Below, piece after piece: positions 5,258 to 60,655 of a stretch of 64,000 nucleotides of DNA. The DNA is from a virus. The position numbers were made by a program, and so were the translations under genes. Under the pieces are notes generated by a model. That model did no database searches. It saw nothing but the letters and a program-made list of their open reading frames with translations, and was not told where the DNA came from. The DNA is taken from the IMG/VR virus record IMGVR_UViG_3300045988_150084. The stretch is one strand, 5' to 3'. Position 1 is the first letter of the stretch. Each line of letters begins with the position of its first letter.

Positions 5258-5333
5258 TGGAGCTACCAGTAAGACTCGAACTTACAACCTTCTGATTACA
5301 AGTCAGATGCACTACCAGTTGTGCTATGGTAGC
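5258..5333 (-). tRNA. tRNA-Thr (anticodon TGT), CCA encoded
   Basis: Hand-folded cloverleaf: acceptor GCTACCA/TGGTAGC, D-stem GCAC/GTGC, anticodon loop CTTGTAA, T-loop TTCGAGT, then discriminator T and CCA. Confidence 0.7.
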
Positions 5334-5528
5334 ATGTAGCCGTCAACACCTCTGTGAAGACATCAACGGCATGTGCGGTTAAATTTTATAGAGCGATACC
5401 GTCAAGCTCTAGGAGTGCCAACGCCCAGTTTACGGATTCTAGTCACAGCTATACCGATGGCTATCTTGTTTTGCACCCAGAAGGAGGTACTGAGTGCTTT
5501 ATATAAAAGAGTTTCCTCTCTTATAATC

Positions 5529-5616
5529 TGGTGGGTAGGAGTGGATTTGAACCACCGAAGACATAAAGCCAGCAGATTTACAGTCTGTCTCCTTTAGCCA
5601 ACTTGGATACCTACCC
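5529..5616 (-). tRNA. tRNA-Tyr (anticodon GTA), class II with a long variable arm, CCA encoded
   Basis: Acceptor GGGTAGG/CCTACCC, anticodon loop CTGTAAA, T-loop TTCAAAT, 88 nt. The long variable arm fits bacterial tRNA-Tyr. Confidence 0.6.
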
Positions 5617-5617
5617 A

Positions 5618-5692
5618 TGGCGGGGGATGTTGGACTCGAACCAACGATGCAGGAGTCAAAGTCCTGTGTCTTAACCACTTGACGAATCCCCT
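5618..5692 (-). tRNA. tRNA-Gln (anticodon TTG), CCA encoded, A1:C72 mismatch at the end of the acceptor stem
   Basis: Acceptor AGGGGAT/ATCCCCC, anticodon stem CAGGA/TCCTG with loop CTTTGAC, T-arm GTTGG TTCGAGT CCAAC. It lies 1 nt from the tRNA-Tyr gene. Confidence 0.6.
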
Positions 5693-5694
5693 AT

Positions 5695-5771
5695 TGGTGT
5701 ACCAAGAGCGGCTCGAACGCTCGACCTACGGATTAAAAGTCCGTTGCTCTAGCCTACTAAGCTATTGGTAC
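5695..5771 (-). tRNA. tRNA-Lys (anticodon TTT), CCA encoded
   Basis: Acceptor GTACCAA/TTGGTAC, D-arm GCTT..GAGC, anticodon stem ACGGA/TCCGT with loop CTTTTAA, T-arm GAGCG TTCGAGC CGCTC. Confidence 0.7.
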
Positions 5772-5775
5772 ATGA

Positions 5776-5862
5776 TGGTGCGAAAGACGGGAATCGAACC
5801 CGTACAGTATTTCTACTGGGGGATTTTAAGTCCCCTGCGTCTGCCAGTTACGCCACTCTCGC
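5776..5862 (-). tRNA. tRNA-Leu (anticodon TAA), class II
   Basis: Acceptor GCGAGAG/CTTTCGC with one G-T pair, D-stem GCGT/ACGC, anticodon stem GGGGA/TCCCC with loop CTTAAAA, a long variable stem-loop CAGTAGAAATACTG, T-arm ACGGG TTCGATT CCCGT. Confidence 0.65.
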
Positions 5863-16397: not shown

Positions 16398-17111
16398 TTA
16401 TTTACGAGGGAACTTGAAATCAAGCACCTTGGCCGCAGCCTCCTTGAGAACTGGGTCATTGCTGTTGAACTTCATCCACGTCAGAGACTTCATAGAAACC
16501 TCGGACAACTTTTTACCGTTGTTCATACTGCCGTCACTCACCACCATATCGAGGAGCTTCTGGATTTCCTCAGGTGCATTTGCCGTATCGACAGGCTTCT
16601 GATATGTGCTGCTTGAGCCGTAGGACTGCCGCTTGTCATACTCTACCTTGGCTTCGAGATTGCCACTACGCTCGTTCTCTGGGAGCGCCCAATCGGGGAG
16701 AGTAATCTTACCGTAGAAGCGTCCATTATGCAGGTCAACGCGCGGAGAATCAAGCTCATAGAGGTAGCGACCAATACCGAGCTGTGCCGCGGCACGCTTG
16801 AGAGCACCAGAGATAGCACCCTTGAGAGGAGAAGCCTGTTCCGTGAACTCAGCTCCGTCCGACTTGATGATAGTCTTGCCGCCGAACTCACACGCCAGAG
16901 TGCAGATAACACCCTTAGAGCAAGTCTCAAAACTGTCTTTCCAGCCCTCTACGCCGAAGACCTCATCGAGACGGTTCTGGATGCCACGTGCCGAGACATA
17001 GGCAAGCATCGTGCCGCTCTGACGGTCTTTGAAGGTACTACCTACACGCCACTCAATCTCTTTGCTGGAAAACGGTGCGCGGAGCAGTTCAGCTACATTT
17101 TTTTCTGCCAT
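16398..17111 (-). CDS. Rad52-family single-strand annealing protein (Sak-like)
   Basis: YVSARGIQNRLDEVFGVEGWKD...KGAISGALKRAAAQLGIGRYLY parallels the Rad52 N-terminal domain. The likely start is the ATG at 17111 with a GGAGGAAG RBS; the ORF track starts upstream at 17177. Confidence 0.65.
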   Translation of the reverse strand: MAEKNVAELLRAPFSSKEIEWRVGSTFKDRQSGTMLAYVSARGIQNRLDEVFGVEGWKDSFETCSKGVICTLACEFGGKTIIKSDGAEFTEQASPLKGAISGALKRAAAQLGIGRYLYELDSPRVDLHNGRFYGKITLPDWALPENERSGNLEAKVEYDKRQSYGSSSTYQKPVDTANAPEEIQKLLDMVVSDGSMNNGKKLSEVSMKSLTWMKFNSNDPVLKEAAAKVLDFKFPRK

Positions 17112-17286
17112 TTTGTTCTTCCTCCATCTTGAACTGAATATTAACCTTTGGCACATAGCGAGTACCGTGAGAATCAACGGCGTAAATCCTGATTGGAATA
17201 CCGTGTTTTATACAGTTTTTGCAATAAGCTGTTGCTTCGTTTACTTCGTCCGTGAGCACTCCAAATTCTTCGTGGATAAACGTCAT
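17089..17286 (-). CDS. Small CxxC protein (65 aa) leading the recombination operon; contains the spacer-2 protospacer
   Basis: An AGGAGG RBS sits 8 nt upstream of the ATG at 17286, and the protein has a CKNC motif. It overlaps the SSAP start. Confidence 0.45.
   Translation of the reverse strand: MTFIHEEFGVLTDEVNEATAYCKNCIKHGIPIRIYAVDSHGTRYVPKVNIQFKMEEEQNGRKKCS
17204..17243 (-). other. Protospacer-like self-match: 40/40 identity to spacer 2 of the array at 59539-59578 (in the reverse-complement sense)
   Basis: Checked base by base: plus strand 17204-17243 reads tgttttatacagtttttgcaataagctgttgcttcgttta, the reverse complement of spacer 2. Its position within ORF 17089..17286 was confirmed against that ORF's translation. 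Confidence 0.9.
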
Positions 17287-17434
17287 TCTTACGACCTCCT
17301 ATGTGATAATACCAGTATAGCAGAGTTAGAGCTTTACGTCAATAAAAAATTCATTTACCCAGTAATACTTTTCGGCAGACGTTCTCGTGGTAAATCAATA
17401 ATAGCACTTTGTTCGATTAGTGTCAATCTTAACT

Positions 17435-18211
17435 TTACTTAGAAAGACGCTTTGCGAGACGTACAGCGAGAGCAGGGTTTGTCTTAGAGAGACTACGCAT
17501 AAAGTCAGAATCGATAGCTTTTTTTGAAGAGACGATAGGCTTCACATCGACGGCATAGACAACGGCATGGTTTCTAGCAGGTTTCCCAATATCCTTCTTA
17601 GCTTTTTTGCCGAGTTGCCAGTTGTTTTTAAGAGCAGCGAAAAAGTAGGCAATAGGATTCTTGACAGAGAGGGAGCTATTGAGAAGGGCGAGCTTTTCTT
17701 CAACGTAGTTTACGCCAAGCTCTTTCATCTCCTCGAAGGAGCACGGCTTATTGCCAGCCAGCTTGCGTCCGTATTCCAGAACTTTCGTTGCGTAGAGGAC
17801 GGGGGAAATACCGAGGGCAGCAGCTTTCTGTCCAACGGCGGCATGGTGGCTAGTCTCAGTCTCCTTCTCAACATCGTTATTATTTGTTTTAACTATTCTA
17901 GTTTGTTCTTTGCGATTCGTAGCCATAGGGCATGTCATGGGCTTCTCGAGGATGCGGACATAGCGGCCAAGCACCATTTTAGGGATTTTGGGAGAGTACA
18001 TGAGCTTGACGGCAACAAGACCAGCGCGGCGAAGGTCGGTAATGATATGACTGATACGCGACATGGATTTACCCATCATCTCTGCAAGGCTTCGATTGTT
18101 CGCCCAGCATGAACCTGTTTTTGCGGAAAGATATTCAATTCTCTCGAACAGCAATACATGTGTGGATGTCATTTTGATACCGTTAATAGTGTCGTTCGGT
18201 TTGAACTTCAT
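17435..18211 (-). CDS. Winged-helix DNA-binding protein, putative replication initiator (Rep-like)
   Basis: A predicted HTH (SLAEMMGKSMSRISHIITDLRRAGLV) sits in the N-terminal third. The gene is divergent from the partition cassette. Function is inferred from context. Confidence 0.4.
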   Translation of the reverse strand: MKFKPNDTINGIKMTSTHVLLFERIEYLSAKTGSCWANNRSLAEMMGKSMSRISHIITDLRRAGLVAVKLMYSPKIPKMVLGRYVRILEKPMTCPMATNRKEQTRIVKTNNNDVEKETETSHHAAVGQKAAALGISPVLYATKVLEYGRKLAGNKPCSFEEMKELGVNYVEEKLALLNSSLSVKNPIAYFFAALKNNWQLGKKAKKDIGKPARNHAVVYAVDVKPIVSSKKAIDSDFMRSLSKTNPALAVRLAKRLSK

Positions 18212-18679: not shown

Positions 18680-18722
18680 GTGAGCGTAGATGATTTTTGC
18701 TTATCGAGAAGGAGGAATTGCC

Positions 18723-19634
18723 ATGATTTCTATCGACGTAGGATTCGGTAACACTAAGGTGTATGACGGCGAAACCTTAAACGTGTTCCCCTCTATCTAT
18801 TACCGCGCCAAGGCAGCCGAAGCCGTGAACGACCCAAGAGATATGCTCCTTGAACTTGACGGTGAAAGGTATCATGTTGGTATCACAGCCCTGCATAAAG
18901 GTGGGGAGTCACAGATGGAGCGTCACAACCTCCTCCGTCACAAGCTCTTCATTCTCTCTGCGATTTGCGCTACAACGAGAGGGGATTTCTCCGATAAGGT
19001 TCTTCTTGGTCTTCCGATTAGCGACATGGAGACGATGAAGGAATCTGTTGAAGGATTGAAAGGCGTATACCACGTTATTTTCAACGGAGAGACGCGAGAA
19101 ATCAACATCACGGCTATTAAGGTATATCCCCAGTCAGAAGCCGTATACAACCTCCTAGAGCGTCAGGACGAGAATATCAGAGACAAGGCAATCGGTATCA
19201 TCGACGTGGGACAGAAAACAGTTGACCTCGCCTACTACAACTACGGCACGCTTGATGATGATAGGTGCGGTAGTCTCACAAAACTCGGTTGCAAGTCGGC
19301 ATACCTTGACATCCAGAAAGCGCTTAATCGTGTCTGCGACATCGATACTGAGTGGTATCTGGTATCTAAGTTCTTGAACCGCGAAGCAATAGAAGAAGAT
19401 AAGAATCGTGCGTTTGAGGACATGGCGCGTAAGATTCTGAGCGCAACCAGTAATCTTGGATGGAACTACCATGAACTCGATGCAGTATACCTTATCGGCG
19501 GCGGTAGTTCTTATGTTGAGCCGTTTGTAAAAGAGCATGTAAAGGTTCTTACTGGAGAGAGCGAAAAAGTTATTATTCCGTCTAACCCAGTATTCGCGAA
19601 TGTGAGGAGTTACTACGAGGGGGAATTGAAATGA
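18723..19634 (+). CDS. parM: ParM/StbA-like actin-type partition ATPase
   Basis: Phosphate-1 ISIDVGFGNTK, phosphate-2 GIIDVGQKTVDLA, adenosine motif LIGGGS. A GAAGGAGGAA RBS precedes the ATG at 18723; the ORF track starts at an upstream ATG with no RBS. Confidence 0.7.
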   Translation: MISIDVGFGNTKVYDGETLNVFPSIYYRAKAAEAVNDPRDMLLELDGERYHVGITALHKGGESQMERHNLLRHKLFILSAICATTRGDFSDKVLLGLPISDMETMKESVEGLKGVYHVIFNGETREINITAIKVYPQSEAVYNLLERQDENIRDKAIGIIDVGQKTVDLAYYNYGTLDDDRCGSLTKLGCKSAYLDIQKALNRVCDIDTEWYLVSKFLNREAIEEDKNRAFEDMARKILSATSNLGWNYHELDAVYLIGGGSSYVEPFVKEHVKVLTGESEKVIIPSNPVFANVRSYYEGELK

Positions 19635-20044
19635 GCAAGAGAGTCTCAGTAGTATTTCCTGGGCTTATCGGGGACTATGTGGAAAAACGCATGAACCAGC
19701 TCGGTCTTACTCCTAGTCAGTTCCTTCATATCATGGTTATCAGGGACTTAATCAGACCGTTGACCATTGAAGAAGCTGGCATCTTGAGCATCGGCGTAGG
19801 TCGTATGAAGTCAGGCGGCAGTGCGGAACAGGTTATCGCTGGACTTGCCCCACTATTCGAGAGAGAAGGTTACTCCAAAAAACAGGAAGAGGAAGAACCT
19901 TTAGGAGACGATGACGTAAAGAAAGTGGTTAGCGACATCCTCTCCGAGCCAATCCCAGAACCGCCAAAGGTAGAAGAGCCAAAACAGACCGTAGAGAAAC
20001 ACCAAGACGAGCCTAAGATGGGGAATATGACAGGCTACATCTGA
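19631..20044 (+). CDS. parR: ParR-like ribbon-helix-helix partition adaptor with an acidic C-terminal tail
   Basis: The N-terminus RVSVVFPGLIGDYVEKRMNQLGLTPSQFLHIMV has an RHH-like strand-helix pattern. The gene overlaps parM (ATGA junction). The C-terminus is rich in E/D/P. Confidence 0.5.
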   Translation: MSKRVSVVFPGLIGDYVEKRMNQLGLTPSQFLHIMVIRDLIRPLTIEEAGILSIGVGRMKSGGSAEQVIAGLAPLFEREGYSKKQEEEEPLGDDDVKKVVSDILSEPIPEPPKVEEPKQTVEKHQDEPKMGNMTGYI

Positions 20045-37359: not shown

Positions 37360-40300
37360 TTATCTGAAACCGTGACGCTGTTGATTGCCCATGATTCTCT
37401 GGAAAGCACGCGGGTTCTTTTGAATTGCTCTCATAACACTTGCACTATCTGCTTGCGTATTGAGAACAACCATATTCCCAGAACCGTTATCTTTACTCCC
37501 CATAGCGGCTAACATATCGTTCTGTTGTTGCATAAGCTGTTCCAGACGTTTGTTGCTGCTTGTCTTAATCACGGTGTTATTACGGTTGAACTTGCGGTAA
37601 TTCTCCACAGTTTTAGGACTCATAACAGGCTCATAGGACTCACCAAGGTCACCGCCGTCCGCGTATCGCTTCATACCAGCAATAGCTTCTGGATTGGCAT
37701 TGAGCGTATCGAGGAAGGAAACTCCGACCTTATCCACCGTGGATTTCTTGATGATATACTCACCATTGGATGTGCGGATAAACTGCCCTCGATTAGCAAG
37801 GTAGGTAAGAATGGAATCACTTGTACCTGTTCCTGCTCCTCCGATAAGACCTGTTGTGTCACCGCCAGTAGCGAACTTAGGAATCAATCCACCAGCAGCC
37901 ATTGGGAAGAAATTCCTTGTCATCATCGTCCCATTCAAGGTCATAACCGAACCAGACAAAATATCCATGACCGAAGTATTTGCTGTTGTTGTAGCCGTTC
38001 CTGTAACCTTTGCGCTAGTGTCTAATGCCGTTTTAGCCGTGCCGAGGATTGTCTCTTTTGTGAGAAGTCTAGTTGCATTTGACATGGCATTTGTGACTGC
38101 TGAAGCACCCTTAACAGTAGTAGAATTGATTGCCAGCTTTTGTCCGAGGTCTGAGAACGCTTTTGTATAGTCTGCCTTACCGCCGAATTGGTTTGTTGCA
38201 CCGTATCGAGAGGAAGGAATCCTATCCATGACGTTTCCGCTCCAGCCGCTCATAAAGCCGCCTACTCTGCCGATATTGTTGACAAAGTTTCTCCTCTGCA
38301 CCCTTCTCGTGATGTTCTCACCGCTAAGAATGTCCTTGAGTCCCCATTTCTGCATCTGAACCTTGAGGATTTGTTGGAGAGCGAGCTTTGCAATATCACT
38401 CCAGAGTGCTTTCCACGACTCTTTGAACGACTTTCCTTCGAGCAGCACATCGGAGAATATAGAATGGACACCATTTTCGATGATGTCGGCAAGTTGGTCT
38501 GTCACAGCATTAAGAGATTTCTTTACATCGTCAATGGATTTCTGAACCTCTGTCAAGTCCTTCTTATATTGCTGTGTAGCTTCGCCGCCGTGTTCGCGGT
38601 TTTGGTCAATCCTATCGGTAAGTTCATCTACATGCTTAGAAACCTTTTGAATCTCGGCATTGAGTGTCTTATCTTCGCTTGTGAGGGTCTTGCGTTTCTC
38701 GATAAGCAAATCAAGGCGTTTCTGTTCGGCATCACGTTCTGTCTCCCAGCCGCTACGCTTCTCGTAGTCGCTTGACTCTGCCTTAGATAACTGAGAATGA
38801 ATCCAGTCGTATTTCTTTTGCAGGATGTCAAGTTTCTGTGCATAGAACCGCATATTCTCCATATAGGACTCATTGTCGGTCATGCCGTTTACTTTGTACT
38901 CGTGTGCGTTGGAAAGACTCTCAAGCTGTGCGTCCAGACGTTCCGTAGGAGACATAGAGCCATAAACCTTACGGTCGCGCTCCGCTTTGTCTTCTACATA
39001 CTTCGATTCGAGGGAATCTAGTTGACTACGAGACTTGATGATAGAGTTAATAGCCTTGGTGAAATCACCCTTGCCCTCTTTATCAAACTTCTTCGCAATC
39101 TCTTGAATCTCAGAATCTGGAAGTGTCTTGATACCTTCGATGGACAGATTATTCTCACTCAGGAAACCCTTGAAGCCACTGAACTTATCGGAATAGTCCT
39201 TGAGGAAGTCTTCGCCGTTCTGTTGGATTGCTCTCCAGTAACTAAGCGTAGTCTCCGTAGACTTGAGTTTAGCTTCTTCGTTCTCGGCAATCTTCTTATA
39301 GATTTCAGCCGTATAGCCACTCAGTTTAGCTTCGGTTTCAAGGCGTTTCTGTTCCCTCTCATAGCGCTTCTGGTCAGTCTCGTACCGATAAGCAGCTTCT
39401 TCGATACCGTTTCTATGGAACGCATTTTCACCACGGTATTTCTCCCAACGGTCAACAGACTCGCTCGAACTAATCGAAGGAGAGCCATATTTAACACCGT
39501 TAGCTTGAGCAAGTTCTTTGATGTCTACACGACCGAGAACAGCTCCGAAATACTGTTGCGCTTCTTCCATTGTTCCATGATGAACGCCGCCGCTACTGTT
39601 CCGTGCGATATACCCACCGTTGCCGTCATAGATACCTACATGCTTATTCCAGTTGATGATGTCACCAGCATTGAGAGGAGCTTCACCAGCGTGATATGCA
39701 CTTCCTGCCTGTTCCATAAGCGTGTCGCCGTTCGGACTATTGACAGATGTGATACCGTGCTTGTTCATCATGTAGGAAACCCAAGACGAACATTGACTCT
39801 CCCATGTAGAGTTATCATCAAAACCTGCATCTATGCCGCGCCATTGTTCGCCAGCATGAGCGTCAGCTTCTTTGACCATGGCTTCACCGATGTTCTCGCC
39901 AATGGTTTGTGTTGCCGTGTTCCAACCAGACTCATTAGCGTATTGGTCAATAGAACGAGAGTAATTATATCCATCTTCGTCCTCGGGCCAAGCATTAGTG
40001 TGACCGACATTATACCAATCCGTAGCGGTTTTAGCGTCATCGTAGCGCATACCGTTATAAGCGTCACCGCGAATGTATGTCTTAGCTAATTCATCGATGA
40101 GGTCTGCCTCGTCTTTGAAACTTCCCATATAGCCGCCGATGTGAGCGTTTGTAGTAAACTCAGTAACGTTAGGAGTTTCAGACATAAATTGGCCATACAT
40201 CATATTAGGAGTGATATAGCGGCCTGTTGTGTCTTGGATTTCTTTCGACACCCTTACCGCAAGTTCAGCAAGATATGGATTTGTGAAGGAACTGTAATCA

Positions 40301-43300
40301 TACCCACCAGCATTAAGCCGAGAACCTTCCGTCATGCGATGTTCATCGTTTCGGGAATAGTCCCTAGAATACTTCGTACTGTTGTACTTCTTATCAAATT
40401 CCTCGATATAGTCAGGAAGAACCTTGTCTAGTTGCTCATCGGAGAGGAAATTGCCATAGAGTTTCTTCCAAATCTCACCCTCGGATAACCCCTGTGAAGC
40501 AAGGTTACCAAACTTTTCGAGGAGCTTATAAGCAGAATCAAATGGGTCAGAACCGCCAGTAGCAAACAGGTCGCTGATACCAGAGAAGTCTGTATTCTTA
40601 GCACCCTTGCCATAGAACAGGTTCAGAAGACTAAACAAGGAAGATTCTTTCACGCCATACTTGGAAAAATCACCGCGAGACATCATATCTTTGACTGTGG
40701 CGATAGCCTGTTGCTGTTCGTCAGAGTAGTTTATATACTCTTTCGGTTCTTTCTTCTCATGGCCAGATGAATCCCTTCCAGAACCAGAACCACCACGCCC
40801 AGAGCCGAAATTCTCAGAATCCTTGCCTTCGTTGTTGCGTCCCTCTGTAATGTCTTTGGACTCATAAGGAGTAACCTTTTGGAGTCCTTCAATCGCTTCT
40901 TGCGCTTTTTTGTTCTCTTCGTCTAGGTAGCCTTGAATATCTTCTAACGCTTTTCCTTTAACTTCACTTTGGTCTTCTGTTACCCAGTCAAGGTGTCTCT
41001 GGATATTATCTATCTGTGCTTCTTTGATTTTTTTAAGCACGGTGTCTAAAAGACCGTCCCCAAGGCTTTCTTGCTCCTCTTTAAGTGATTCAATAGATTG
41101 TTTGTCTACTTCAATCGCTTGCGCATCCATGTTGTATCTAAATTGATAGAACATAGCGTATGCTTTTTGAAGGATATTTAACCCATCGAGCTGTGAGGTT
41201 GTCCATTTACCAAAGTTTTGAATGGATTTTTCCAACCTATCTCTTTCTTTATTCGTCCATTCAACTTGATTGAGATAATATTGATAGAGAGAAGTGTTTG
41301 CTTCTTTTAGTTTTTCTTCTTTTGCATTTGTCGCAGTAATATAATTATCTTTTTCAGCATTATATGCTTCTGTTGTGTAACCAGCTTGCTTGATTCTTTC
41401 TGCTGCATCTGCGCCAAACACATCTGTCAAATGTTGGTCAATGTCGATTAGCTTACTTTTTGAAGTTGCAAGTTCTTCTTCTGAGAGTTTCCCAGATTCA
41501 ATAGCTTCTTTCAGTTCTTGTGCTTTTTCTATGCTGCTATCTGTCATTTCGATGTTCTTTTTACGAGCATCAACCTCTTTAGAAAGCGTATCAACTTCTG
41601 TTTCCAGACTTTCCTTTACCTTATCAGTAGCTTCACTAAAATCGAGAAAAAGAGGAACAACAACTGCAAGAAGGGTAATTATAACTCCGATAGGCCCACC
41701 AAAAGCAGAAAAGGCAATATTGAGAACGCGAGCTGCCATAGAAGCAGCAGTCATCCCTGCGGCCGCAAGTCTGCCTGCGTCAGCCATAGCAATCATTTTA
41801 ACTCTAGCGATTTCGGTACTTACTGCGTTCGCTTTAGCGTATCTATCAGCTATCCTGAGTTGCTGTGCATAAGACATCTGAGCCAGTTGTACCGCTTTCG
41901 TAGACGTAACAACCTTTTTGTCAGTAGTGATGAGACGTTCAAGCTCTGCTCTATATTCTTTTGTTTGTCTTATTGAATTAACGGTAGCAGAACTTTTCGA
42001 ATCGGATTTATTTATTGACGTAGCCGCTGGGATATTCATCACCTGAGTCATGTATGAAGACCTGCCAGACGCATAAGCAGCTTGAAGGTTTCCAGCAAGA
42101 GAGGAGATGATACCTGCATTTTTTTGTGCAGCACCGACTTCCCACATCGCAGTAGTTTTACCAGCTAAAGAAGCAATTTGTCTGAGGATAGGAGGTAATA
42201 ACTTGTATGCCGCAACAATAGCAAGGATACCCTTCGCGAACTGATAAGCGTGAGATGTTCCTTTTTGACTTTTTTCAAGGAGACTATTTAAGAGATTGAG
42301 AATCCACTTAATGTCATTAACAAGACCGTTGTTGCCGTTCGACATGAAGAGCTTTGCGATATTCGCTTTCAGAGTCTCTACCTTACGAGCAACCGTGTCC
42401 ATCTGGAGAGCTAACTGTTGGTCTGTGAATCCAGCGGAATCCTTGGTCAGCTCGATAGTACGTTTCAACTCGTTGTAGTTGTTCAAGAGAGCGATGGTCT
42501 TGGATGATTGCCACTTACCACCAGAGATAGCAAGCATAAAATCAGACAAGGACTTAGAATCAAGGTTTGTGTGTTGCAGTCCTTTGGAAATATCAAGAAT
42601 CAGGTCTTCAACAGGACGTAACTCTTTCTTTCCGTTTGCGCCAATCTTATAAACCTCAATGCCGAATTTTTGCATAGCCTTGACAGCCTTATCTGACTGA
42701 ATCGAGGCAAACAAGGATTTCAGCATTGTACCGATTTCATTACCACTCTTAGCCGTGGTACGGACACCTGTTGCGATGAGTGCGTTTAAGAAACCAAAGG
42801 AAACACCAGCGGCGTTCGCGGCAGCTCCTGATTGCTTAACACCTTCTGTCAAATCCTGCGCCGAAGCACCAGATGTATGAGCAAGTTTCGTCCACACATC
42901 GAGGATATGAGTAGAACGTGCCATCAATAGGTTACTGTCCTCTGTCTGCATATTGAACTGGGAGAGTGCCGACTCAAGACCAAGTACAGCGTCCTTCATC
43001 TCAAAGTTATCTGTGGTAGCCATCTTAGCCGCTTGCGCCGTCAGAATTTCAGTATTCTTAGCGCCCACGTCAGCGTCACCGCCGCCTTGGCCATACAAAC
43101 GACCGACAGACCTTGCCGCTTCGAGGACATTATCAGCAGACTGTCCGAATTGAGCACCGATAGAAGCAAACTTTGAGAACTCTCCGTTCATCGCCGCTTG
43201 TCCTTCTTCTACCTTCGGCAACACCTGTGCGATACCAGCCATAGCAAGCTCGTACTTAGAAACGTCAGATACCACATCGGAGGGGAAACTGATAATATGA

Positions 43301-46089
43301 TTCTCAATAGAACTACCGATTGCCCAGTTCGCAGATTCTCTAGCTCTCCTGAGGATGTTCTCTATATTAAGCGCATGACGAGGAGCTTTAGAAATTTCCT
43401 CATTGAATCGCTCTGCCTGACGGTTGAGAAGTCTGAGTTCGGTTCTTGCTCTCTCAAAACCAATCTTATCAGTAATAGAATTTGTCTTTTGGAACTGTAA
43501 GTAGAGGTCTTGAGCGTTCTTACGCGCTTCGGAGAGCCGTGCATTGAACGATTCGGAGATAGAGAGGGCTTCAACCTTGTTATCCTTGAGAGGAGCTGGC
43601 TTCTTGACGTTTACGCCCTTTAGCATGGACTCGTCAACGCCTACGGCCTTTCCCTCTTCGCCAAGTTGCTTGAGTGCCTTTGCAATATCCTCGATACGGT
43701 TCTTCTCCGTGATATAGCTGTTCTGAGTATAGACAAGCCCAGCCTTACCAGTATGCTGGGAGATTCTTCTCTTTACCTTCTCAAGAGCTTTAAGCTGATT
43801 AGCAATCTGCTCCTGCCGAGCGGCTTCTTCTGCATCGGCTTTCTTCTGAGCAGCTTGACGAGCTTTCTGGATAGCAAGGCGTGTCTTTTGTTCCGCTTGG
43901 AGGACTTTCTCTCTTTCTTGTGCGGATTTCTCTGCTTGCTTAGTTTCCTCTTTTTGAGCCTTGGCTTCTTCCTCCATTTGCTTCTTGAGGAGGGCAGAAC
44001 TTTTCTTTGCGGCCTGTTCCTGTTGCTTAATTTCCTCATCGAAAAGGTTAGTGACTTTCATACCACTACGCGCTTTTTCAATGTCTCTCAAGCTCATGGG
44101 CTGATTCTGTACGTTCTTTACATAGTCAGCGTATTTTCCCTCTGAGAATGGATTTGTTGTAGAAAGGTCACCTTTAAGTTCTGAAAGAACCTTGCGTAAA
44201 GCAATAATTCTCTGCCGAGCTTGTTCCCACTTGCGTTCATTGAGAATCGTGCCGTTATCTCTGCTGTTCCATCCGCTGTTGACGAGCTTATCATGCTCTT
44301 TCTGAGCGGCTTCAAGACGCTTTGCAGGTTCTTCGCCAAGTTTCCTACTTACTGACCGTTTGAGTTCCTCGAAATGCCTACGAAGGGTTTCAAGCGTTGT
44401 GAGATACTTTCTAGCATCCCTGTCAGCGCGATTGATACCTTGAGCGAAATCACCGTTGCCGAGTTGCTGGAGGAGCGCTTCTGCCTGTGTGATTCTTGCG
44501 AGGGCGCGGGCATATTTGCCAAGGGATTCGTCCTGCTCTGCTCCCTTTTTGAGAAGTTGTACAAGGTCATTCTGTTGCTTAGAAACATCAACCTTTGTGT
44601 CGTTGGTTTTCTTTCCGCTTGCATAAGCCTTGCGAAGTTCTTCCTCTTTAGCGCGGATTTGCGAATCGAGGGTCTTTACTTCTGGTTTCTCAGGAGCTTT
44701 CTTCTCTTTGGATGATTCTTTTTTCTCTGCTTCTGCCTGTGCCTTACGCTCCGCGGCTTTTTCAACAACATCCTTACCGAATTTCTTGAGTGTATCACGA
44801 GCCTCGTTTACAACAGCGAAAGCATTGGCAATAGAGGAAAAGTCGATATGTGCCGCGTTCCAGAGGTATTCATACATAGAGCGCGTATCGGCAGCAAGAG
44901 CATTGATAGCGGAGACAGGGAGAGATTTACCTACGTTTTCCCATGCGCGAGAAAGACGTTCTGTATAGTCCTTGATGTCCTCATTCGCGTCCGTACTCTT
45001 GACAGACGGTTTCTTCGCTTTAGGAGCGGTAGTTCCCTTGACGTTCAGCCTCGGCGGTTCGGGAATCTTGATGTTCTTAAAGCTCTCGTTTATCTCGTGT
45101 GCCAGCTTCTTCGTCGATTCGACCATAGCGACTGTCTTATCGTTTGCATTGACCAGACTCGAATTAACTTTTGTGTCAAGAACGTTAGCAATTTCCAGCC
45201 ATTTCTTTTTGATACCGTCGAGAAGCCCAGCGGCTTCGGCATACTCTTCCAGAATAGCCTTAACTGCCTTTTCGGAGAAACTATCATCTGTTGTAAGAGC
45301 TTCTTTAGCGTTCTTCTCTGTCTTAGCCTTTGCCTTTGCAGCTTCTTTTTCCCTTTCCGCTTCTCTTTTCGCTTGAGCCGCCTTTGCAGCAGAAAGAAGA
45401 GTATACTCATTCCTAAGAGCGCGGATTTCCTCTCTCTGTCCTTCTACGGAGAGGTCTTTGGGAAGTCCCTTGACTTTATTAAGTCCTGAGATAAAGTTGC
45501 CCAAATCCATCTTGACTAGATTATTGCCAGCAAGAGAATGTAACTCCTTTTTGATATTAGCTACGTTTTTACTGACGATACCAGAATAAGTTCTTACATT
45601 GTCAGCGGCTTTCTCTAGGTTAATACCATCAACAGCATTTGTCCTGATTTTCTCTGCTGATGAAGCAATCTCATTGATAGCCGTTTTGATTGACTTGGAT
45701 TGTGCTAGAAACTTATCTAAAGCATCATCTTGAGCCTTTGCTGTCTCTTCTGTTGCCTTTTTTACGCCTTTTGCGGCATCGATTTGCTCTTTAGACGCAT
45801 TGACACTCTCTTGCAGCTTCTTGTTCACGTCTCCAATCTCTTTGGTCATGGTCGTTAAGCCAAGGGATTTAGAGATTTTTTCAAGGTTTCGTGCTAGTTC
45901 GAGAGCAGAGCCACCAGTCTCATTTAGGGAAGAGATGATAGACTTCCTGTATTCATCCTTAAAATCGGTAAACTTGATGTCGTTGATGGAATTGAGCGCA
46001 TCTTTTACTTTTTCGAGATTAGTAAGAGACTTGCCAATTTCAACTTCCAAGTTATATGAGATTTTCGTAGACTTAGAATCGTCTGGCAT
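37360..46089 (-). CDS. Tail tape measure protein (2909 aa) with an embedded CHAP peptidoglycan-hydrolase domain
   Basis: A giant ORF with long A/E/K-rich coiled coils and a hydrophobic transmembrane-like segment. QCSSWVSYMM...HVGIYDGNGGYIARNSSGGVHHG carries a CHAP-type Cys/His pair. It follows the G/GT chaperones. Confidence 0.8.
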   Translation of the reverse strand: MPDDSKSTKISYNLEVEIGKSLTNLEKVKDALNSINDIKFTDFKDEYRKSIISSLNETGGSALELARNLEKISKSLGLTTMTKEIGDVNKKLQESVNASKEQIDAAKGVKKATEETAKAQDDALDKFLAQSKSIKTAINEIASSAEKIRTNAVDGINLEKAADNVRTYSGIVSKNVANIKKELHSLAGNNLVKMDLGNFISGLNKVKGLPKDLSVEGQREEIRALRNEYTLLSAAKAAQAKREAEREKEAAKAKAKTEKNAKEALTTDDSFSEKAVKAILEEYAEAAGLLDGIKKKWLEIANVLDTKVNSSLVNANDKTVAMVESTKKLAHEINESFKNIKIPEPPRLNVKGTTAPKAKKPSVKSTDANEDIKDYTERLSRAWENVGKSLPVSAINALAADTRSMYEYLWNAAHIDFSSIANAFAVVNEARDTLKKFGKDVVEKAAERKAQAEAEKKESSKEKKAPEKPEVKTLDSQIRAKEEELRKAYASGKKTNDTKVDVSKQQNDLVQLLKKGAEQDESLGKYARALARITQAEALLQQLGNGDFAQGINRADRDARKYLTTLETLRRHFEELKRSVSRKLGEEPAKRLEAAQKEHDKLVNSGWNSRDNGTILNERKWEQARQRIIALRKVLSELKGDLSTTNPFSEGKYADYVKNVQNQPMSLRDIEKARSGMKVTNLFDEEIKQQEQAAKKSSALLKKQMEEEAKAQKEETKQAEKSAQEREKVLQAEQKTRLAIQKARQAAQKKADAEEAARQEQIANQLKALEKVKRRISQHTGKAGLVYTQNSYITEKNRIEDIAKALKQLGEEGKAVGVDESMLKGVNVKKPAPLKDNKVEALSISESFNARLSEARKNAQDLYLQFQKTNSITDKIGFERARTELRLLNRQAERFNEEISKAPRHALNIENILRRARESANWAIGSSIENHIISFPSDVVSDVSKYELAMAGIAQVLPKVEEGQAAMNGEFSKFASIGAQFGQSADNVLEAARSVGRLYGQGGGDADVGAKNTEILTAQAAKMATTDNFEMKDAVLGLESALSQFNMQTEDSNLLMARSTHILDVWTKLAHTSGASAQDLTEGVKQSGAAANAAGVSFGFLNALIATGVRTTAKSGNEIGTMLKSLFASIQSDKAVKAMQKFGIEVYKIGANGKKELRPVEDLILDISKGLQHTNLDSKSLSDFMLAISGGKWQSSKTIALLNNYNELKRTIELTKDSAGFTDQQLALQMDTVARKVETLKANIAKLFMSNGNNGLVNDIKWILNLLNSLLEKSQKGTSHAYQFAKGILAIVAAYKLLPPILRQIASLAGKTTAMWEVGAAQKNAGIISSLAGNLQAAYASGRSSYMTQVMNIPAATSINKSDSKSSATVNSIRQTKEYRAELERLITTDKKVVTSTKAVQLAQMSYAQQLRIADRYAKANAVSTEIARVKMIAMADAGRLAAAGMTAASMAARVLNIAFSAFGGPIGVIITLLAVVVPLFLDFSEATDKVKESLETEVDTLSKEVDARKKNIEMTDSSIEKAQELKEAIESGKLSEEELATSKSKLIDIDQHLTDVFGADAAERIKQAGYTTEAYNAEKDNYITATNAKEEKLKEANTSLYQYYLNQVEWTNKERDRLEKSIQNFGKWTTSQLDGLNILQKAYAMFYQFRYNMDAQAIEVDKQSIESLKEEQESLGDGLLDTVLKKIKEAQIDNIQRHLDWVTEDQSEVKGKALEDIQGYLDEENKKAQEAIEGLQKVTPYESKDITEGRNNEGKDSENFGSGRGGSGSGRDSSGHEKKEPKEYINYSDEQQQAIATVKDMMSRGDFSKYGVKESSLFSLLNLFYGKGAKNTDFSGISDLFATGGSDPFDSAYKLLEKFGNLASQGLSEGEIWKKLYGNFLSDEQLDKVLPDYIEEFDKKYNSTKYSRDYSRNDEHRMTEGSRLNAGGYDYSSFTNPYLAELAVRVSKEIQDTTGRYITPNMMYGQFMSETPNVTEFTTNAHIGGYMGSFKDEADLIDELAKTYIRGDAYNGMRYDDAKTATDWYNVGHTNAWPEDEDGYNYSRSIDQYANESGWNTATQTIGENIGEAMVKEADAHAGEQWRGIDAGFDDNSTWESQCSSWVSYMMNKHGITSVNSPNGDTLMEQAGSAYHAGEAPLNAGDIINWNKHVGIYDGNGGYIARNSSGGVHHGTMEEAQQYFGAVLGRVDIKELAQANGVKYGSPSISSSESVDRWEKYRGENAFHRNGIEEAAYRYETDQKRYEREQKRLETEAKLSGYTAEIYKKIAENEEAKLKSTETTLSYWRAIQQNGEDFLKDYSDKFSGFKGFLSENNLSIEGIKTLPDSEIQEIAKKFDKEGKGDFTKAINSIIKSRSQLDSLESKYVEDKAERDRKVYGSMSPTERLDAQLESLSNAHEYKVNGMTDNESYMENMRFYAQKLDILQKKYDWIHSQLSKAESSDYEKRSGWETERDAEQKRLDLLIEKRKTLTSEDKTLNAEIQKVSKHVDELTDRIDQNREHGGEATQQYKKDLTEVQKSIDDVKKSLNAVTDQLADIIENGVHSIFSDVLLEGKSFKESWKALWSDIAKLALQQILKVQMQKWGLKDILSGENITRRVQRRNFVNNIGRVGGFMSGWSGNVMDRIPSSRYGATNQFGGKADYTKAFSDLGQKLAINSTTVKGASAVTNAMSNATRLLTKETILGTAKTALDTSAKVTGTATTTANTSVMDILSGSVMTLNGTMMTRNFFPMAAGGLIPKFATGGDTTGLIGGAGTGTSDSILTYLANRGQFIRTSNGEYIIKKSTVDKVGVSFLDTLNANPEAIAGMKRYADGGDLGESYEPVMSPKTVENYRKFNRNNTVIKTSSNKRLEQLMQQQNDMLAAMGSKDNGSGNMVVLNTQADSASVMRAIQKNPRAFQRIMGNQQRHGFR

Positions 46090-57795: not shown

Positions 57796-57926
57796 TTCAC
57801 CTTTGCGCCGCTATACACTTTCTTCCGATGGGGACATTCATAGACACCTTCCCAGTAGTATAACCCCTGACAGTACATCAAAGCATAGTTCCTCGATAAG
57901 CCGATTTTGTTTCCTAGTATCTTCAT
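57741..57926 (-). CDS. Small basic protein (61 aa)
   Basis: ATG with a GAAGGGGGAA RBS, directly downstream of conserved element copy B. Confidence 0.35.
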   Translation of the reverse strand: MKILGNKIGLSRNYALMYCQGLYYWEGVYECPHRKKVYSGAKVKCRLKWSRIRKKNHRRKK

Positions 57927-57945
57927 GGCGTAAAAATTCCCCCTT

Positions 57946-57980
57946 CATATATTATCCGCGGTGACTTTTCAAGTAAAAAC
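57946..57980 (-). promoter_or_regulatory. Conserved upstream element, copy B
   Basis: tcatatattatccgcggtgacttttcaagtaaaaa is 31/35 identical to copy A. Confidence 0.45.
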
Positions 57981-58453
57981 ACGCTCAAATACATTAAAGT
58001 TACATTAGAATTATATTATAGAAAGCTATAAGAGTTAACATGATGTAATGCTACCCAGTAACACTCAATCATATTGCCTTGACATCCCTTTTGCCATGCG
58101 CCCTCGGCGGCTCTGAAATTGTCCTCCCTGAGTGATACTTGACAATAGCGCGTAACACCGTGAGTAACGCCAAAAACTGCTGCCTATGTACACCCTCAAC
58201 AGACACCATCTTCCTCGATTTGTAAACTAAAAAACGCAAAGTGCTTGACGATGTATACGAGAATAAAGCGCCCCCTAGCTGGATTAAGTGTTTTTTGCAG
58301 GTTTGCCGAAAATTGCCCCATCTAGCCCCAATCCTTTAGTTAGTTGAAGAGCCTGTGAAGCCTTATACCACAAGGGCTGGCGGCACTTCCACGTTGCATA
58401 ATTGATATTATAAAACGATTGAGAATAATTTCCAATAACGTGTATTAATCAAG

Positions 58454-58974
58454 TTGTCTGACAATTTCTTATTGATAGATTTTCTCATTTACTTTGACCT
58501 TTTGTCCTATATCATTTCTGCATATTATGCGCGCGTATTATGCTATTTTTGTATGTACGCCTCCAGTGGACACGTTACTAAAATATACCCCTCTAGGGTA
58601 TACCAAAGTCAAACTTAATTTTACTTCTATTTTATCCAATTCAATTTAGCTAAATCGTTTTTATCCTTAGTAGCATCAAGGCTTTTCGCATATCCAGTCC
58701 CATTTAGTAATATATCTTGTTACATAATCATACCCGATATCATTAAGTCTTATTCAATCATACCTAGTAATACCCTTGCATATCGGAGAAGTGTGTTTTA
58801 GCAAAGTAAAGTAAATAGTATTCATACTTGATTGCTATGTTTTAGTAAAGTAAAGAGACAGGAAAATAGTCCTATTTAATTCTCTCAACCCTTGTAATTA
58901 CTAGCTTCATCGCCCTTGTACTCTCTCGATGCACATTTGTTTTGCCTTATCAAATTATTATTGTCTGACAATTT
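58454..58974. repeat. AT-rich noncoding region with several direct repeat families (iteron-like)
   Basis: TTGTCTGACAATTT appears twice (58454, 58961) and contains a TTGTC-N-GACAA palindrome. TTTTAG(C/T)AAAGTAAAG appears twice (58796, 58840). CCCTTGTAATTACTAGCTTCATC appears twice (58889, 58996). No ORF of 60 aa or more lies between 57930 and 59345. Confidence 0.55.
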
Positions 58975-59428
58975 ATTTTTCTTGTTGCCCGCCAGCCCTT
59001 GTAATTACTAGCTTCATCACTGTTTTCTACCTTTTTCTAATAAAACAAAATATCCATGCTCATATATCAACGCCCCGCCAGCCCACTAACTACGCCGCCT
59101 GATAGCCTTTTCGATTAGCAAAAAATCATCACTTTCTCTCATATAAAAATACACGCGAGGAAATCCCTTATTGATAATATTTCTCAAAGGAATTAAAAAT
59201 AAAAAGACTTGCACGTTATTCGTCGCTTGCTATAACAAAGTTGCAATCGGGAACGGCCCGAAAGGGAAATGAACCGAAAGCAATCCATCCGACGCCCGCG
59301 GGGGGGCCGAACAAGACGCCCCGCTTAAAAGAGAAAGAAAGGAGATGAAAAGGCCGCTATCAGGCCCAGCACGCCCGCCGCAGTCAACTTCTATTAATAG
59401 TTCTTTGAAAATTTCATATTGCAGGGGG

Positions 59429-59613
59429 GTTTCCGTCCCCTTACGGGGATTTTGTTTTTCAACGAAGAAGAGTTTTATTCGACCGTCGCGCCCGCTGATG
59501 AAAGTTTCCGTCCCCTTACGGGGATTTTGTTTTTCAACTAAACGAAGCAACAGCTTATTGCAAAAACTGTATAAAACAGTTTCCGTCCCCTTACGGGGAT
59601 TTTGTTTTTCAAC
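59429..59613 (-). CRISPR. Mini-CRISPR array with 3 identical 35-nt repeats (gtttccgtccccttacggggattttgtttttcaac on the plus strand) and two 40-nt spacers; type III-A-like repeat read on the minus strand
   Basis: Repeats at 59429-59463, 59504-59538 and 59579-59613 are identical. Spacers are 59464-59503 and 59539-59578. The repeat reverse complement GTTGAAAAACAAAATCCCCGTAAGGGGACGGAAAC has the hairpin plus ACGGAAAC tag layout typical of type III-A repeats. Strand is inferred from that. Confidence 0.8.
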
Positions 59614-59734
59614 ACGCTCGTCGGGAATAGAGTTACGCGAGTACCCTGCTATATGGATTAATATTGACCCGTAGACTCCGAGAACAGGGGACGCGGCCGG
59701 CGAGGGCCTCTAACGTGACAGGTTAGTAGGTACG

Positions 59735-59989
59735 GTGAACCACACTCAAGCCGGTTTTAAGAAGTACCGAAGGCCTTCTTGCGTCTCACACGACAACCGA
59801 CTCGGGGAGACAGGCCGGAGGGGCGTTAAGTTGCGCCCGCTTGTTGGCAGCACGGTATTACTTTATGTAGTATCGCCGGAGGTCGAGCAGTTCAATAAGG
59901 CCGAGTATGACGTCAAGGCGGGCCGCGTTGATAATCTCGGCGTGTTCTGTCAGCAGTTCATGCTGGCCGGTATGAAGGAGGTGAAGTAA
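59735..59989 (+). CDS. Doubtful ORF (GTG start, weak RBS) in the GC-rich region between the array and the early genes
   Basis: ORF track entry only. The region may instead be the array leader or a structured RNA. Confidence 0.2.
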   Translation: MNHTQAGFKKYRRPSCVSHDNRLGETGRRGVKLRPLVGSTVLLYVVSPEVEQFNKAEYDVKAGRVDNLGVFCQQFMLAGMKEVK

Positions 59990-59991
59990 AG

Positions 59992-60180
59992 ATGTTCTGG
60001 AAAGCGTTCCACTCCTACTACTACACGGAGGACGAGGAAGAACGTGCCGAACTGTTGCAGGACTTCCCCGCCGCCGTGCCGATGACGGAAGAAGAGTTTT
60101 ATTCGACCGTCGTGCCCGCTGATGAAATCATGGTGACGGGGAACTACCTTCACGCCTATGGAGAAGTAGATTTCCTGTAA
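59992..60180 (+). CDS. Small acidic early protein (62 aa); contains the spacer-1 protospacer
   Basis: ATG preceded by GGAGGTG. First in the plus-strand run of small genes. Confidence 0.55.
   Translation: MFWKAFHSYYYTEDEEERAELLQDFPAAVPMTEEEFYSTVVPADEIMVTGNYLHAYGEVDFL
60088..60127 (+). other. Protospacer-like self-match: 39/40 identity to spacer 1 (59464-59503), single C/T difference at 60113
   Basis: Aligned by hand. The mismatch converts GCG (Ala) in the spacer version to GTG (Val) in the gene. Confidence 0.85.
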
Positions 60181-60331
60181 GGCACGCGCCCAAACCGACC
60201 ATTTCCGGCCGCGCCGGGCGTTTGTTTTCGCGCTTGAACGCGCTACGAGCCTACGCAAGTTTCCCCGATTTGCATAGGTTTGCTAATGCTGTCAAGCAGA
60301 TTTGTTGTTTCTATCTAAGGGAGGAAAAACC

Positions 60332-60655
60332 ATGAAACTTGTCAATCTTACGCCGCACGCTATCAACATCTATGGGCAGGACGCGTCGACGGTGCTCGTC
60401 ACGGTCGAACCGACTGCGCCCGCCGCTCGTTGCGCCCAGCGCTCCGAGGTTTGCGGGTACGCAGGGGAAATCCCCATCTACCGCATGGAGTTCGGGGAGG
60501 TGGAGAACCTGCCCGAGCCTGTCGAGGGAACGGTTTACATTGTCTCGCGGCTGGTCGCTACGGCGGTCAATCGTGCCGATGTGTTCTGCCCTGGCGCGGC
60601 GGTACGCGACGAGGCTGGCCGTGTCGTGGGCTGTGTAGGACTGTCCCGCGTGTAA
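60332..60655 (+). CDS. Hypothetical protein (107 aa), markedly GC-rich relative to its neighbours
   Basis: ATG with an AAGGGAGGAAAAACC RBS. Rich in Ala/Arg/Val/Gly. Confidence 0.5.
   Translation: MKLVNLTPHAINIYGQDASTVLVTVEPTAPAARCAQRSEVCGYAGEIPIYRMEFGEVENLPEPVEGTVYIVSRLVATAVNRADVFCPGAAVRDEAGRVVGCVGLSRV

Follow-up and report, generated by a model that had tools for sequence, protein, structure and literature searches.

A type III-A CRISPR mini-array with self-matching spacers in an early noncoding RNA locus of a Selenomonas phage-plasmid: a possible fragment of a host array

The DNA considered here (the window) is a stretch of 64,000 nucleotides from a virus, IMG/VR record IMGVR_UViG_3300045988_150084. 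At about 17 kb its minus strand carries an operon that starts with a small ORF of 65 aa (Table 1). An AGGAGG is found 7 nt ahead of the ATG of this ORF, which overlaps the start of the gene for a Rad52-family single-strand annealing protein (SSAP). Besides the SSAP, the operon includes a primase-helicase and an MmcB-like nuclease. Two promoter-like sites are located upstream: one reads TTGACA-17-TATTAT (11/12, with TG) and the other TTGACG-17-TATACT (10/12). As these strong promoter-like sites lie directly upstream, the protospacer inside the 65-aa ORF (protospacer 2) is placed near the 5' end of a replication/recombination operon. The initial annotation of this DNA had described a small CxxC ORF with its own AGGAGG that overlaps the SSAP start and heads a recombination module, and both the ORF and its position were found as described. 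Neither the 65-aa protein nor the 62-aa protein that is matched by the other spacer gave a match in Pfam or PHROGs. The gene beyond the promoters of the 65-aa ORF (17435-18211) resembles replication initiators. Divergent from it lies a ParM-like actin gene (18690-20044), followed by a small ORF. This ParM-like/replication-initiator-like pair has the character of a plasmid-type maintenance module and fits the phage-plasmid life of the relative NC_017069.1.

The remainder of the window displays the gene content of a tailed phage (terminase, portal, capsid, tube, a 2909-aa tape measure and endolysin), in addition to a DNA polymerase III alpha, the primase-helicase and the ParM-like segregation protein. 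An integrase-family gene is situated just past the right end of the window. The very long tape-measure-like gene (37360-46089) shows PhageMin_Tail and NlpC/P60 matches, and five tRNA genes (Thr, Tyr, Gln, Lys, Leu) are clustered on the minus strand at 5258-5862. The nearest relative among isolate genomes is the 72.9-kb plasmid NC_017069.1 of Selenomonas ruminantium TAM6421, the TerL of which is 83% identical. Since this relative is a plasmid and a ParM-like gene is present, the window can be assigned to a family of Selenomonas phage-plasmids. Among 50,697 published phage records no DNA match was obtained for 56-64 kb or for 13-21 kb, and in IMG/VR neither the CRISPR repeat described below nor relatives of the SSAP were found. 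A gene-free, A+T-rich gap at 57900-59200 contains several direct repeats in and around it (56331/57934, 57 nt, 77%; 58886/58993, 26 nt, 96%; 58454/58961/59401), as well as several promoter-like sites, which face in both directions. An origin or a packaging region may be located here.

Near 59.5 kb, three 35-nt repeats (100% identical) and two 40-nt spacers form a CRISPR mini-array. Its spacers are host-like in length (host spacers measure 34-41 nt), and no further repeat-like copy with up to 9 mismatches occurs within the 64-kb window. Spacer 2 is the exact reverse complement of the plus strand at protospacer 2, with 40 of 40 positions matching and 0 mismatches. Not one of 100 dinucleotide-preserving shuffles of the window gave a 40/40 pair of this kind. 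The virus-borne mini-array with a perfect self match that had been noted before was thereby borne out on recomputation. The initial annotation had overlooked that spacer 1 also matches the phage itself, at 39 of 40 positions, inside a 62-aa plus-strand ORF only 624 bp away. The single mismatch corresponds to a G·U wobble at guide position 15 of the guide:mRNA duplex. When the array is read in the crRNA sense, both guides would be complementary to their target mRNAs. At both protospacers the anti-tag is absent, as the flanks are not complementary to the tag; the 3' flank of protospacer 2 is CGGTATTC, where a perfect anti-tag would be GTTTCCGT. Given production of guides and transcription of the targets, the phage would look foreign to the host complex. 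In type III systems, full pairing without an anti-tag activates Cas10 and Csm6.

Table 1. Features of the window around the mini-array and its two targets
Feature	Position	Strand	Basis or remark
Rad52-family single-strand annealing protein gene	16398..17111	-	PF04098
65-aa ORF, one CxxC motif, first gene of the operon	17089..17286	-	no Pfam/PHROG match
Protospacer 2	17204..17243	-	match to spacer 2; target RNA would be the minus-strand mRNA
Pair of sigma-70-like promoter sites directly ahead of the 65-aa ORF	17314..17426	-	promoter scan
Promoter-like TTGCAC-16-TGcTATAAC	59209..59236	+	conserved in all relatives; below scan threshold
Noncoding RNA, 5' part (RNA interrupted by the array)	59243..59428	+	homology with relatives
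CRISPR repeat 1 (35 nt)	59429..59463	-	crRNA sense GTTGAAAAACAAAATCCCCGTAAGGGGACGGAAAC, 8-nt tag ACGGAAAC
Spacer 1 (40 nt)	59464..59503	-	39/40 self, 40/40 L032; missing in L016
CRISPR repeat 2	59504..59538	-	identical to repeats 1 and 3
Spacer 2 (40 nt)	59539..59578	-	40/40 to 17204-17243; in all array-bearing contigs
CRISPR repeat 3	59579..59613	-	identical to repeats 1 and 2
Noncoding RNA, 3' part	59614..59845	+	homology restarts; consensus fold
Early-operon promoter-like site over imperfect palindrome	59844..59873	+	scan and alignment
3' remnant of the 192-aa first early gene	about 59870..59989	+	tblastn: 39 aa, 92% identity
62-aa acidic early ORF, spacer 1 target	59992..60180	+	without family match
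Protospacer 1, the phage's own copy	60088..60127	+	39/40 to spacer 1

An identical 35-nt repeat is found in long arrays of an uncultured Selenomonas (MAG CAKPXP01) and of two metagenome (JGI) contigs. Selenomonas arrays with this repeat flank a complete type III-A locus, consisting of cas1, cas2, cas10/csm1, csm2-5, cas6 and csm6. Three host arrays have the same leader to the right of the right-hand repeat, and the cas genes read leftward. In addition, a degenerate terminal repeat is present at the left end of the L001 array, where it adjoins cas1, and of the L048 array. Leader side, degenerate terminal repeats and cas gene order together establish that the crRNA sense corresponds to the minus strand of the window. 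The tag ACGGAAAC and the best Rfam match of the repeat (CRISPR-DR18, on the minus strand) agree with this orientation. The host leader (GTCCCTCCGAAAAGCCTTGTCATTCC...) is absent at the phage array, where phage homology restarts straight after repeat 3. Likewise, no sigma-70-like minus-strand promoter was detected at 59600-60300, although the scan is a crude one and Selenomonas promoters are poorly known. When read on the plus strand, the repeats form a terminator-like hairpin followed by a T/U run (-9.6 kcal/mol). At the gathering threshold Rfam returned five tRNAs only, and a permissive search of 57.8-60.1 kb yielded no more than weak CRISPR-repeat models, with the flanking noncoding RNA assigned to no family. 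L003, considered as a related phage mini-array, was rejected, as it is a short host array beside histidine biosynthesis genes.

The array interrupts a noncoding region of about 0.5 kb that is shared by all relatives and is preceded by a conserved plus-strand promoter-like sequence. As this sequence (TTGCAC-16-TGcTATAAC) falls below the scan threshold and was read from the alignment, it is regarded here as a putative promoter. The consensus fold of the 3' half of the noncoding RNA reaches -40.2 kcal/mol on the plus strand versus -17.7 kcal/mol on the minus strand, with compensatory pairs. A variable 5' hairpin and a terminal hairpin with a U-rich tail complete the RNA, which corresponds to no Rfam family. 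The sequence GTTGCAAT... at 59240 was considered as a second repeat type and rejected: it belongs to the variable 5' hairpin and is shared with L034. At the promoter-like site of the early operon, the inverted repeat (59844-59873) differs by lineage, GCACGCTATTAA-TTT-TAATAGTGC versus CGGTATTAC...GTAGTATCG, and may be an operator that defines immunity types. G+C content is raised from 59230 to 60650 (53-66% versus about 44% elsewhere), a stretch that extends over the array as well as the noncoding RNA and the first early genes, one of which (107 aa) matches PHROGs of unknown function. With Pfam and PHROGs, no anti-CRISPR-like or ring-nuclease domain was found in the early genes. The early operons of distant relatives contain ArdA (anti-restriction) and RadC-like genes (L025 4502-5038; L023/L024 1731-2186), which suggests that the region adjoining the array is the counter-defence region of the family.

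The noncoding RNA is the main target of the host type III-A spacers. Among the 84 spacers examined in host arrays, nine match the phage family, with no target outside the noncoding RNA and the first few early genes. Eight of them are complementary to the plus-strand RNA. These orientations indicate plus-strand transcription of the noncoding region, to which the phage array is thus antisense. The matches also identify Selenomonas strains with the III-A system as hosts of the phage family. Several of the targeted sites are close to the array. Host spacer L047_sp10, which matches a relative at 35/35, targets the segment that was replaced by the array, and L004_sp2 matches the last ~40 nt of the 5' noncoding RNA part in relatives and abuts the left junction. 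To the right, L047_sp15 matches 59666-59695 (27/30), 50 nt beyond the right junction. Three further matches concern the 192-aa first early gene that is deleted in the array-bearing lineage. The sole one of the nine oriented such that it would not pair with its mRNA is L048 spacer 7, an early-gene match of 34/34 (L034 4361-4394).

Close relatives were collected by lookups with the terminase (TerL) and a neighbouring gene. About 18 distinct ones lack the array, some of them with an identical TerL, and the array is confined to the window's own lineage. In more distant relatives with a TerL about 80% identical, among them the S. ruminantium plasmid, the corresponding gap is likewise free of an array. 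Homology to the relatives ends at 59428 (alignments: 59416-59428) and restarts at 59614/59621. The break at 59428 and the restart at 59614 define the insert as exactly repeat-spacer-repeat-spacer-repeat, without a leader. About 105 nt from the central part of the conserved early noncoding RNA are replaced by it. The array-less sibling L032 is ~99% identical over the flank adjoining the array (99.7% over 15 kb). In comparison with this sibling, the right junction is a mosaic: the first 21 nt past repeat 3 are unlike L032, and the following 39 nt are identical to it. This pattern fits a donor patch with its end within a flanking spacer. No such mosaic is clearly evident at the left junction, which is uninformative.

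Spacer 1 matches the array-less L032 perfectly (40/40). The initial annotation had proposed to look for the spacer 2 protospacer in related phages, with or without mismatches, and it is present in both forms. It is exact in the window's lineage, in a contig of the sample of L032 and in a relative with 96% identity, and it differs from spacer 2 by 3-4 or 10-12 mismatches in the remaining relatives. Array-bearing and array-less siblings both occur in one sample series (BRIT16 prefix; short contigs PRJNA217052). Compared to L032, the array-bearing lineage lacks ~625 bp, that is, most of the 192-aa first early gene, which is complete in the sibling (L032 5051-5629). An 84-aa ORF at this site was rejected as a gene, its last 39 codons being the 3' remnant of the 192-aa gene.

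The array with the same flanks on both sides was recovered at least five times independently, in assemblies that differ in sample and assembler; this recurrence had not been noticed in the initial annotation. Array-bearing loci of independent origin are L016 (= L027, L049), L017, L019 and L020. Of these, L016 (9209-10009) represents a variant that had also gone unnoticed: it contains two repeats and spacer 2, and exactly repeat 1 and spacer 1 are missing. Identical proteins of both target ORFs are encoded on many contigs from various samples and assemblers, and a 67.9-kb contig matches the window at 100% identity over 20 kb. The concern had been raised that a mis-assembly joined a host array to a phage contig, and a 40-nt identity between spacer and protospacer is indeed able to confuse assembly graphs. 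The recurrence of the same array with identical flanks in independent assemblies excludes such an artefact for practical purposes. Moreover, repeats flank both spacers, and both protospacers are in intact genes.

The explanation that we favour, and that we hold at roughly even probability, is that the array is a leaderless two-spacer piece of a host III-A array that was captured by recombination in one phage-plasmid lineage. The captured fragment probably makes no guides. According to this explanation, hosts would load their arrays with spacers against the earliest transcripts of the phage family, namely the noncoding RNA and the first early genes. The donor would be a host array with consecutive spacers against this family, for which the expected order is ...TTGCAGGGGG-R-S1-R-S2-R-ACGCTCGTCGGGAATAGAGTT.... 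Crossover may then have proceeded through the ~40-nt homologies between the flanking spacers of the donor and their phage protospacers. Such an exchange would be akin to recombineering, and the phage has its own Rad52-type annealing protein. The result would be the swap of ~105 nt of the noncoding RNA locus for repeat-spacer1-repeat-spacer2-repeat. In this way, the spacers would match the phage because the host took them from the phage or its sibling. Functional type III spacers have one shared orientation relative to transcripts, and a captured fragment is therefore necessarily antisense to local transcription. In the plus-strand RNA, the target-sense spacers 1 and 2 and the protospacer ending at 59428 are each followed by a perfect anti-tag (GUUUCCGU). 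The phage copy would thus be read as target-sense RNA between perfect anti-tags, not as guides, and hence there would be no self-targeting. The identity with the host repeat, the orientation, the junctions, the absence from relatives and the hot spot of host targeting are observations, whereas the route by recombination and the lack of guides are deduced.

Five features that a capture predicts are all seen at the locus: junctions at the repeat edges, no leader, an antisense array, flanks that are matched by host spacers, and spacers that match the phage's own lineage. Both junctions lie at sequence matched by host spacers (L004_sp2/L047_sp10 at the left junction, L047_sp15 near the right one). 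Further support comes from the deletion of most of the heavily targeted 192-aa gene in the same lineage, as deletion of a targeted gene is an expected escape route from type III systems. [quoted passage not shown] Against a capture speaks that four consecutive spacers on one phage family would be needed, whereas no more than two adjacent ones (L047_sp9 and sp10) were observed. Repeat scans of genomes and metagenomes did not yield the donor array, and neither spacer 1 nor spacer 2 occurs among the 84 host spacers examined. A search of a protein database with the spurious translation of the array returned nothing. It is the missing donor that keeps the capture explanation at an even level. The array was kept with perfectly identical repeats in at least five samples. 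Such persistence might point to a selected function, but in so young a lineage the identity of the repeats is not informative.

The standard view of viral mini-arrays is that they exclude related viruses through host Cas proteins (PMC6858448, PMC11656645). Applied to the present case, the guides of a working mini-array would be processed and used via host Cas6/Csm, and would kill incoming siblings that transcribe their early and replication operons. Transcription of the array would proceed in the crRNA sense, for instance while the phage persists as a plasmid prophage, and the resident would be spared as long as its operons are silent in lysogeny. As type III requires transcription of the target, a silent resident copy could indeed be spared. 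This reading, superinfection exclusion, is the strongest alternative, though clearly less probable than a capture. Both guides would be antisense to their target mRNAs, spacer 1 matches the array-less L032 better than its own phage (40/40 versus 39/40), and several relatives differ from spacer 2 by 0-4 mismatches. The target of spacer 1 adjoins the array, as in other viral mini-arrays (PMC6858448), and the host system is complete, with Cas6 and Csm6. A quiescent state exists in a phage-plasmid family (ParM-like gene, 72.9-kb plasmid relative), and array-bearing and array-less siblings both occur in that one sample series (BRIT16/PRJNA217052). The same guides, however, would hit the carrier itself on induction or lytic infection, as spacer 2 is a 40/40 self match, spacer 1 deviates only by a G·U wobble, and no anti-tag is present. 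In a mini-array for superinfection exclusion, the carrier's own orthologous loci would be mutated or deleted so that self is spared, which is not the pattern here. Furthermore, neither a leader nor a crRNA-sense promoter was found, the array is antisense inside a conserved plus-strand RNA, and no anti-CRISPR or ring-nuclease domain was found among the early genes. Silence of the replication operon in a plasmid prophage is also doubtful.

Two other readings take the array as formed or used in place, and both are considerably less probable. In the one, a solitary host repeat was present first, and host Cas1-Cas2 then inserted spacers derived from the phage itself as the most abundant DNA in the cell, with a neutral or mildly harmful outcome. 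The host possesses Cas1 and Cas2, the one-spacer variant L016 could be an intermediate, and 40-nt spacers are within the host range of 34-41 nt. Such an acquisition is nevertheless very unlikely, given that no leader adjoins any repeat, that a solitary repeat was found in no relative (at the site or elsewhere), and that spacer 1 matches the sibling L032 better than the phage itself. The orientation of both spacers is, moreover, the one that selection in the host would give. Off-target spacer integration at a native pseudo-repeat was rejected, since the three repeats match the host repeat and not native phage sequence. The other reading, favoured by the initial annotation, holds that the self-targeting is conditional or regulatory, with the host Csm complex and the phage guides tuning or timing the replication/recombination and early operons. 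Both targets do lie at operon 5' ends behind promoter-like sites. Full 40-nt pairing without an anti-tag would, however, fully activate Cas10 and Csm6 and not merely trim the mRNA, and the relatives do without the array. A leader and a crRNA-sense promoter were not found, and the array is antisense to the conserved early RNA. The full-length pairing lies in coding sequence, whereas known regulatory CRISPR-like RNAs pair partially with promoters (bioRxiv 10.1101/2023.03.03.530964), and the junctions look like those of a host-array capture. A regulatory role is accordingly not supported and very unlikely.

An unlikely, though not negligible, proposal is that the fragment serves as a sequence-specific RNA decoy against type III immunity. 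In this case, the conserved early promoter would drive the plus-strand RNA, which a matching host Csm complex would bind as 'self', so that Cas10 would not be activated. Csm would in this way be diverted from the genuine targets (17.2 kb and 60.1 kb). As a variant, the same antisense RNA could be the switch that makes a self-matching exclusion array tolerable in the lytic cycle. In the literature searched, no report of an RNA decoy by an anti-tagged array transcript was found.

Returning to the captured host fragment, its anatomy points to host immune memory that was captured by recombination at a hot spot of type III targeting. Viral mini-arrays as such are known, but ideas on their origin are largely conjectural, and they are reported to avoid exact self matches. 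The present locus offers a natural, datable example, with ~99% identity between array-bearing and array-less siblings along their common flank next to the array. What appears to be new is a type III-A mini-array on a phage-plasmid with true self matches, the anatomy of which hints at how arrays of this kind originate. The case bears on the question whether the transcription dependence of type III can let a phage carry guides against itself, and on whether an anti-tagged antisense array RNA can weaken type III immunity. It also connects a family of Selenomonas phage-plasmids from the human gut and rumen to its hosts and to a complete III-A system.

Among known systems, the conditional tolerance of type III-A offers a first parallel: in the work of Goldberg (Nature, 2014), a perfect spacer match to a lytic gene of a resident prophage is reportedly tolerated while that gene is silent. 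The spacer is located in the host array there, whereas here it resides on the phage itself. The same distinction applies to self-targeting spacers against prophages (PMC7708048), where spacer and exact phage-DNA target likewise share one replicon or genome; in the present case the array is part of the phage.

The closest resemblance is to virus-borne mini-arrays that serve in interviral conflict, such as those of SPV1 and SPV2 (Medvedeva 2019, PMC6858448). These have one or two spacers, no cas genes and repeats identical to those of the host, their spacers match close relatives, and one target adjoins the array. Many phage mini-arrays (surveyed by Faure 2019, as cited in PMC6858448, PMC8616872 and PMC11656645) are leaderless, as is the one described here. 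In the described virus-borne mini-arrays, however, the carrier's own loci are mutated or deleted, whereas here the carrier is matched at 40/40 by one spacer and with one wobble-only difference by the other. The earlier statement that exact self matches are atypical of viral mini-arrays agrees with the literature (PMC6858448, PMC8616872). A further difference is that the present system is type III-A, which is RNA-guided and dependent on target transcription, and that the array is antisense in a transcribed noncoding RNA.

Repeats of host type in phages without cas genes are also known from RNA anti-CRISPRs and solitary repeat units (PMC11656645). RNA anti-CRISPRs are single repeats in the crRNA sense that trap Cas proteins, while the array described here consists of two complete spacers between three complete repeats and is probably read in the antisense direction. 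Regulatory mini-arrays and repeat-like RNAs (bioRxiv 10.1101/2023.03.03.530964) are similarly small, occur in part on prophages and have a defined target. Their pairing to cas promoters is partial and their repeats are often degenerate, in contrast to the full-length matches in phage coding sequence and the perfect repeats found here. With respect to the route of formation, the recombination described by Varble 2019 (Nat Microbiol), as far as it is presented in PMC8616872, likewise uses short homology between spacer and protospacer as substrate and joins CRISPR DNA to phage DNA. In that account, entire CRISPR-cas loci are moved by hybrid transducing particles, which are the products of the exchange. 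The present case looks like a double exchange, with a small and stable insert remaining in a phage lineage that is viable and in circulation.
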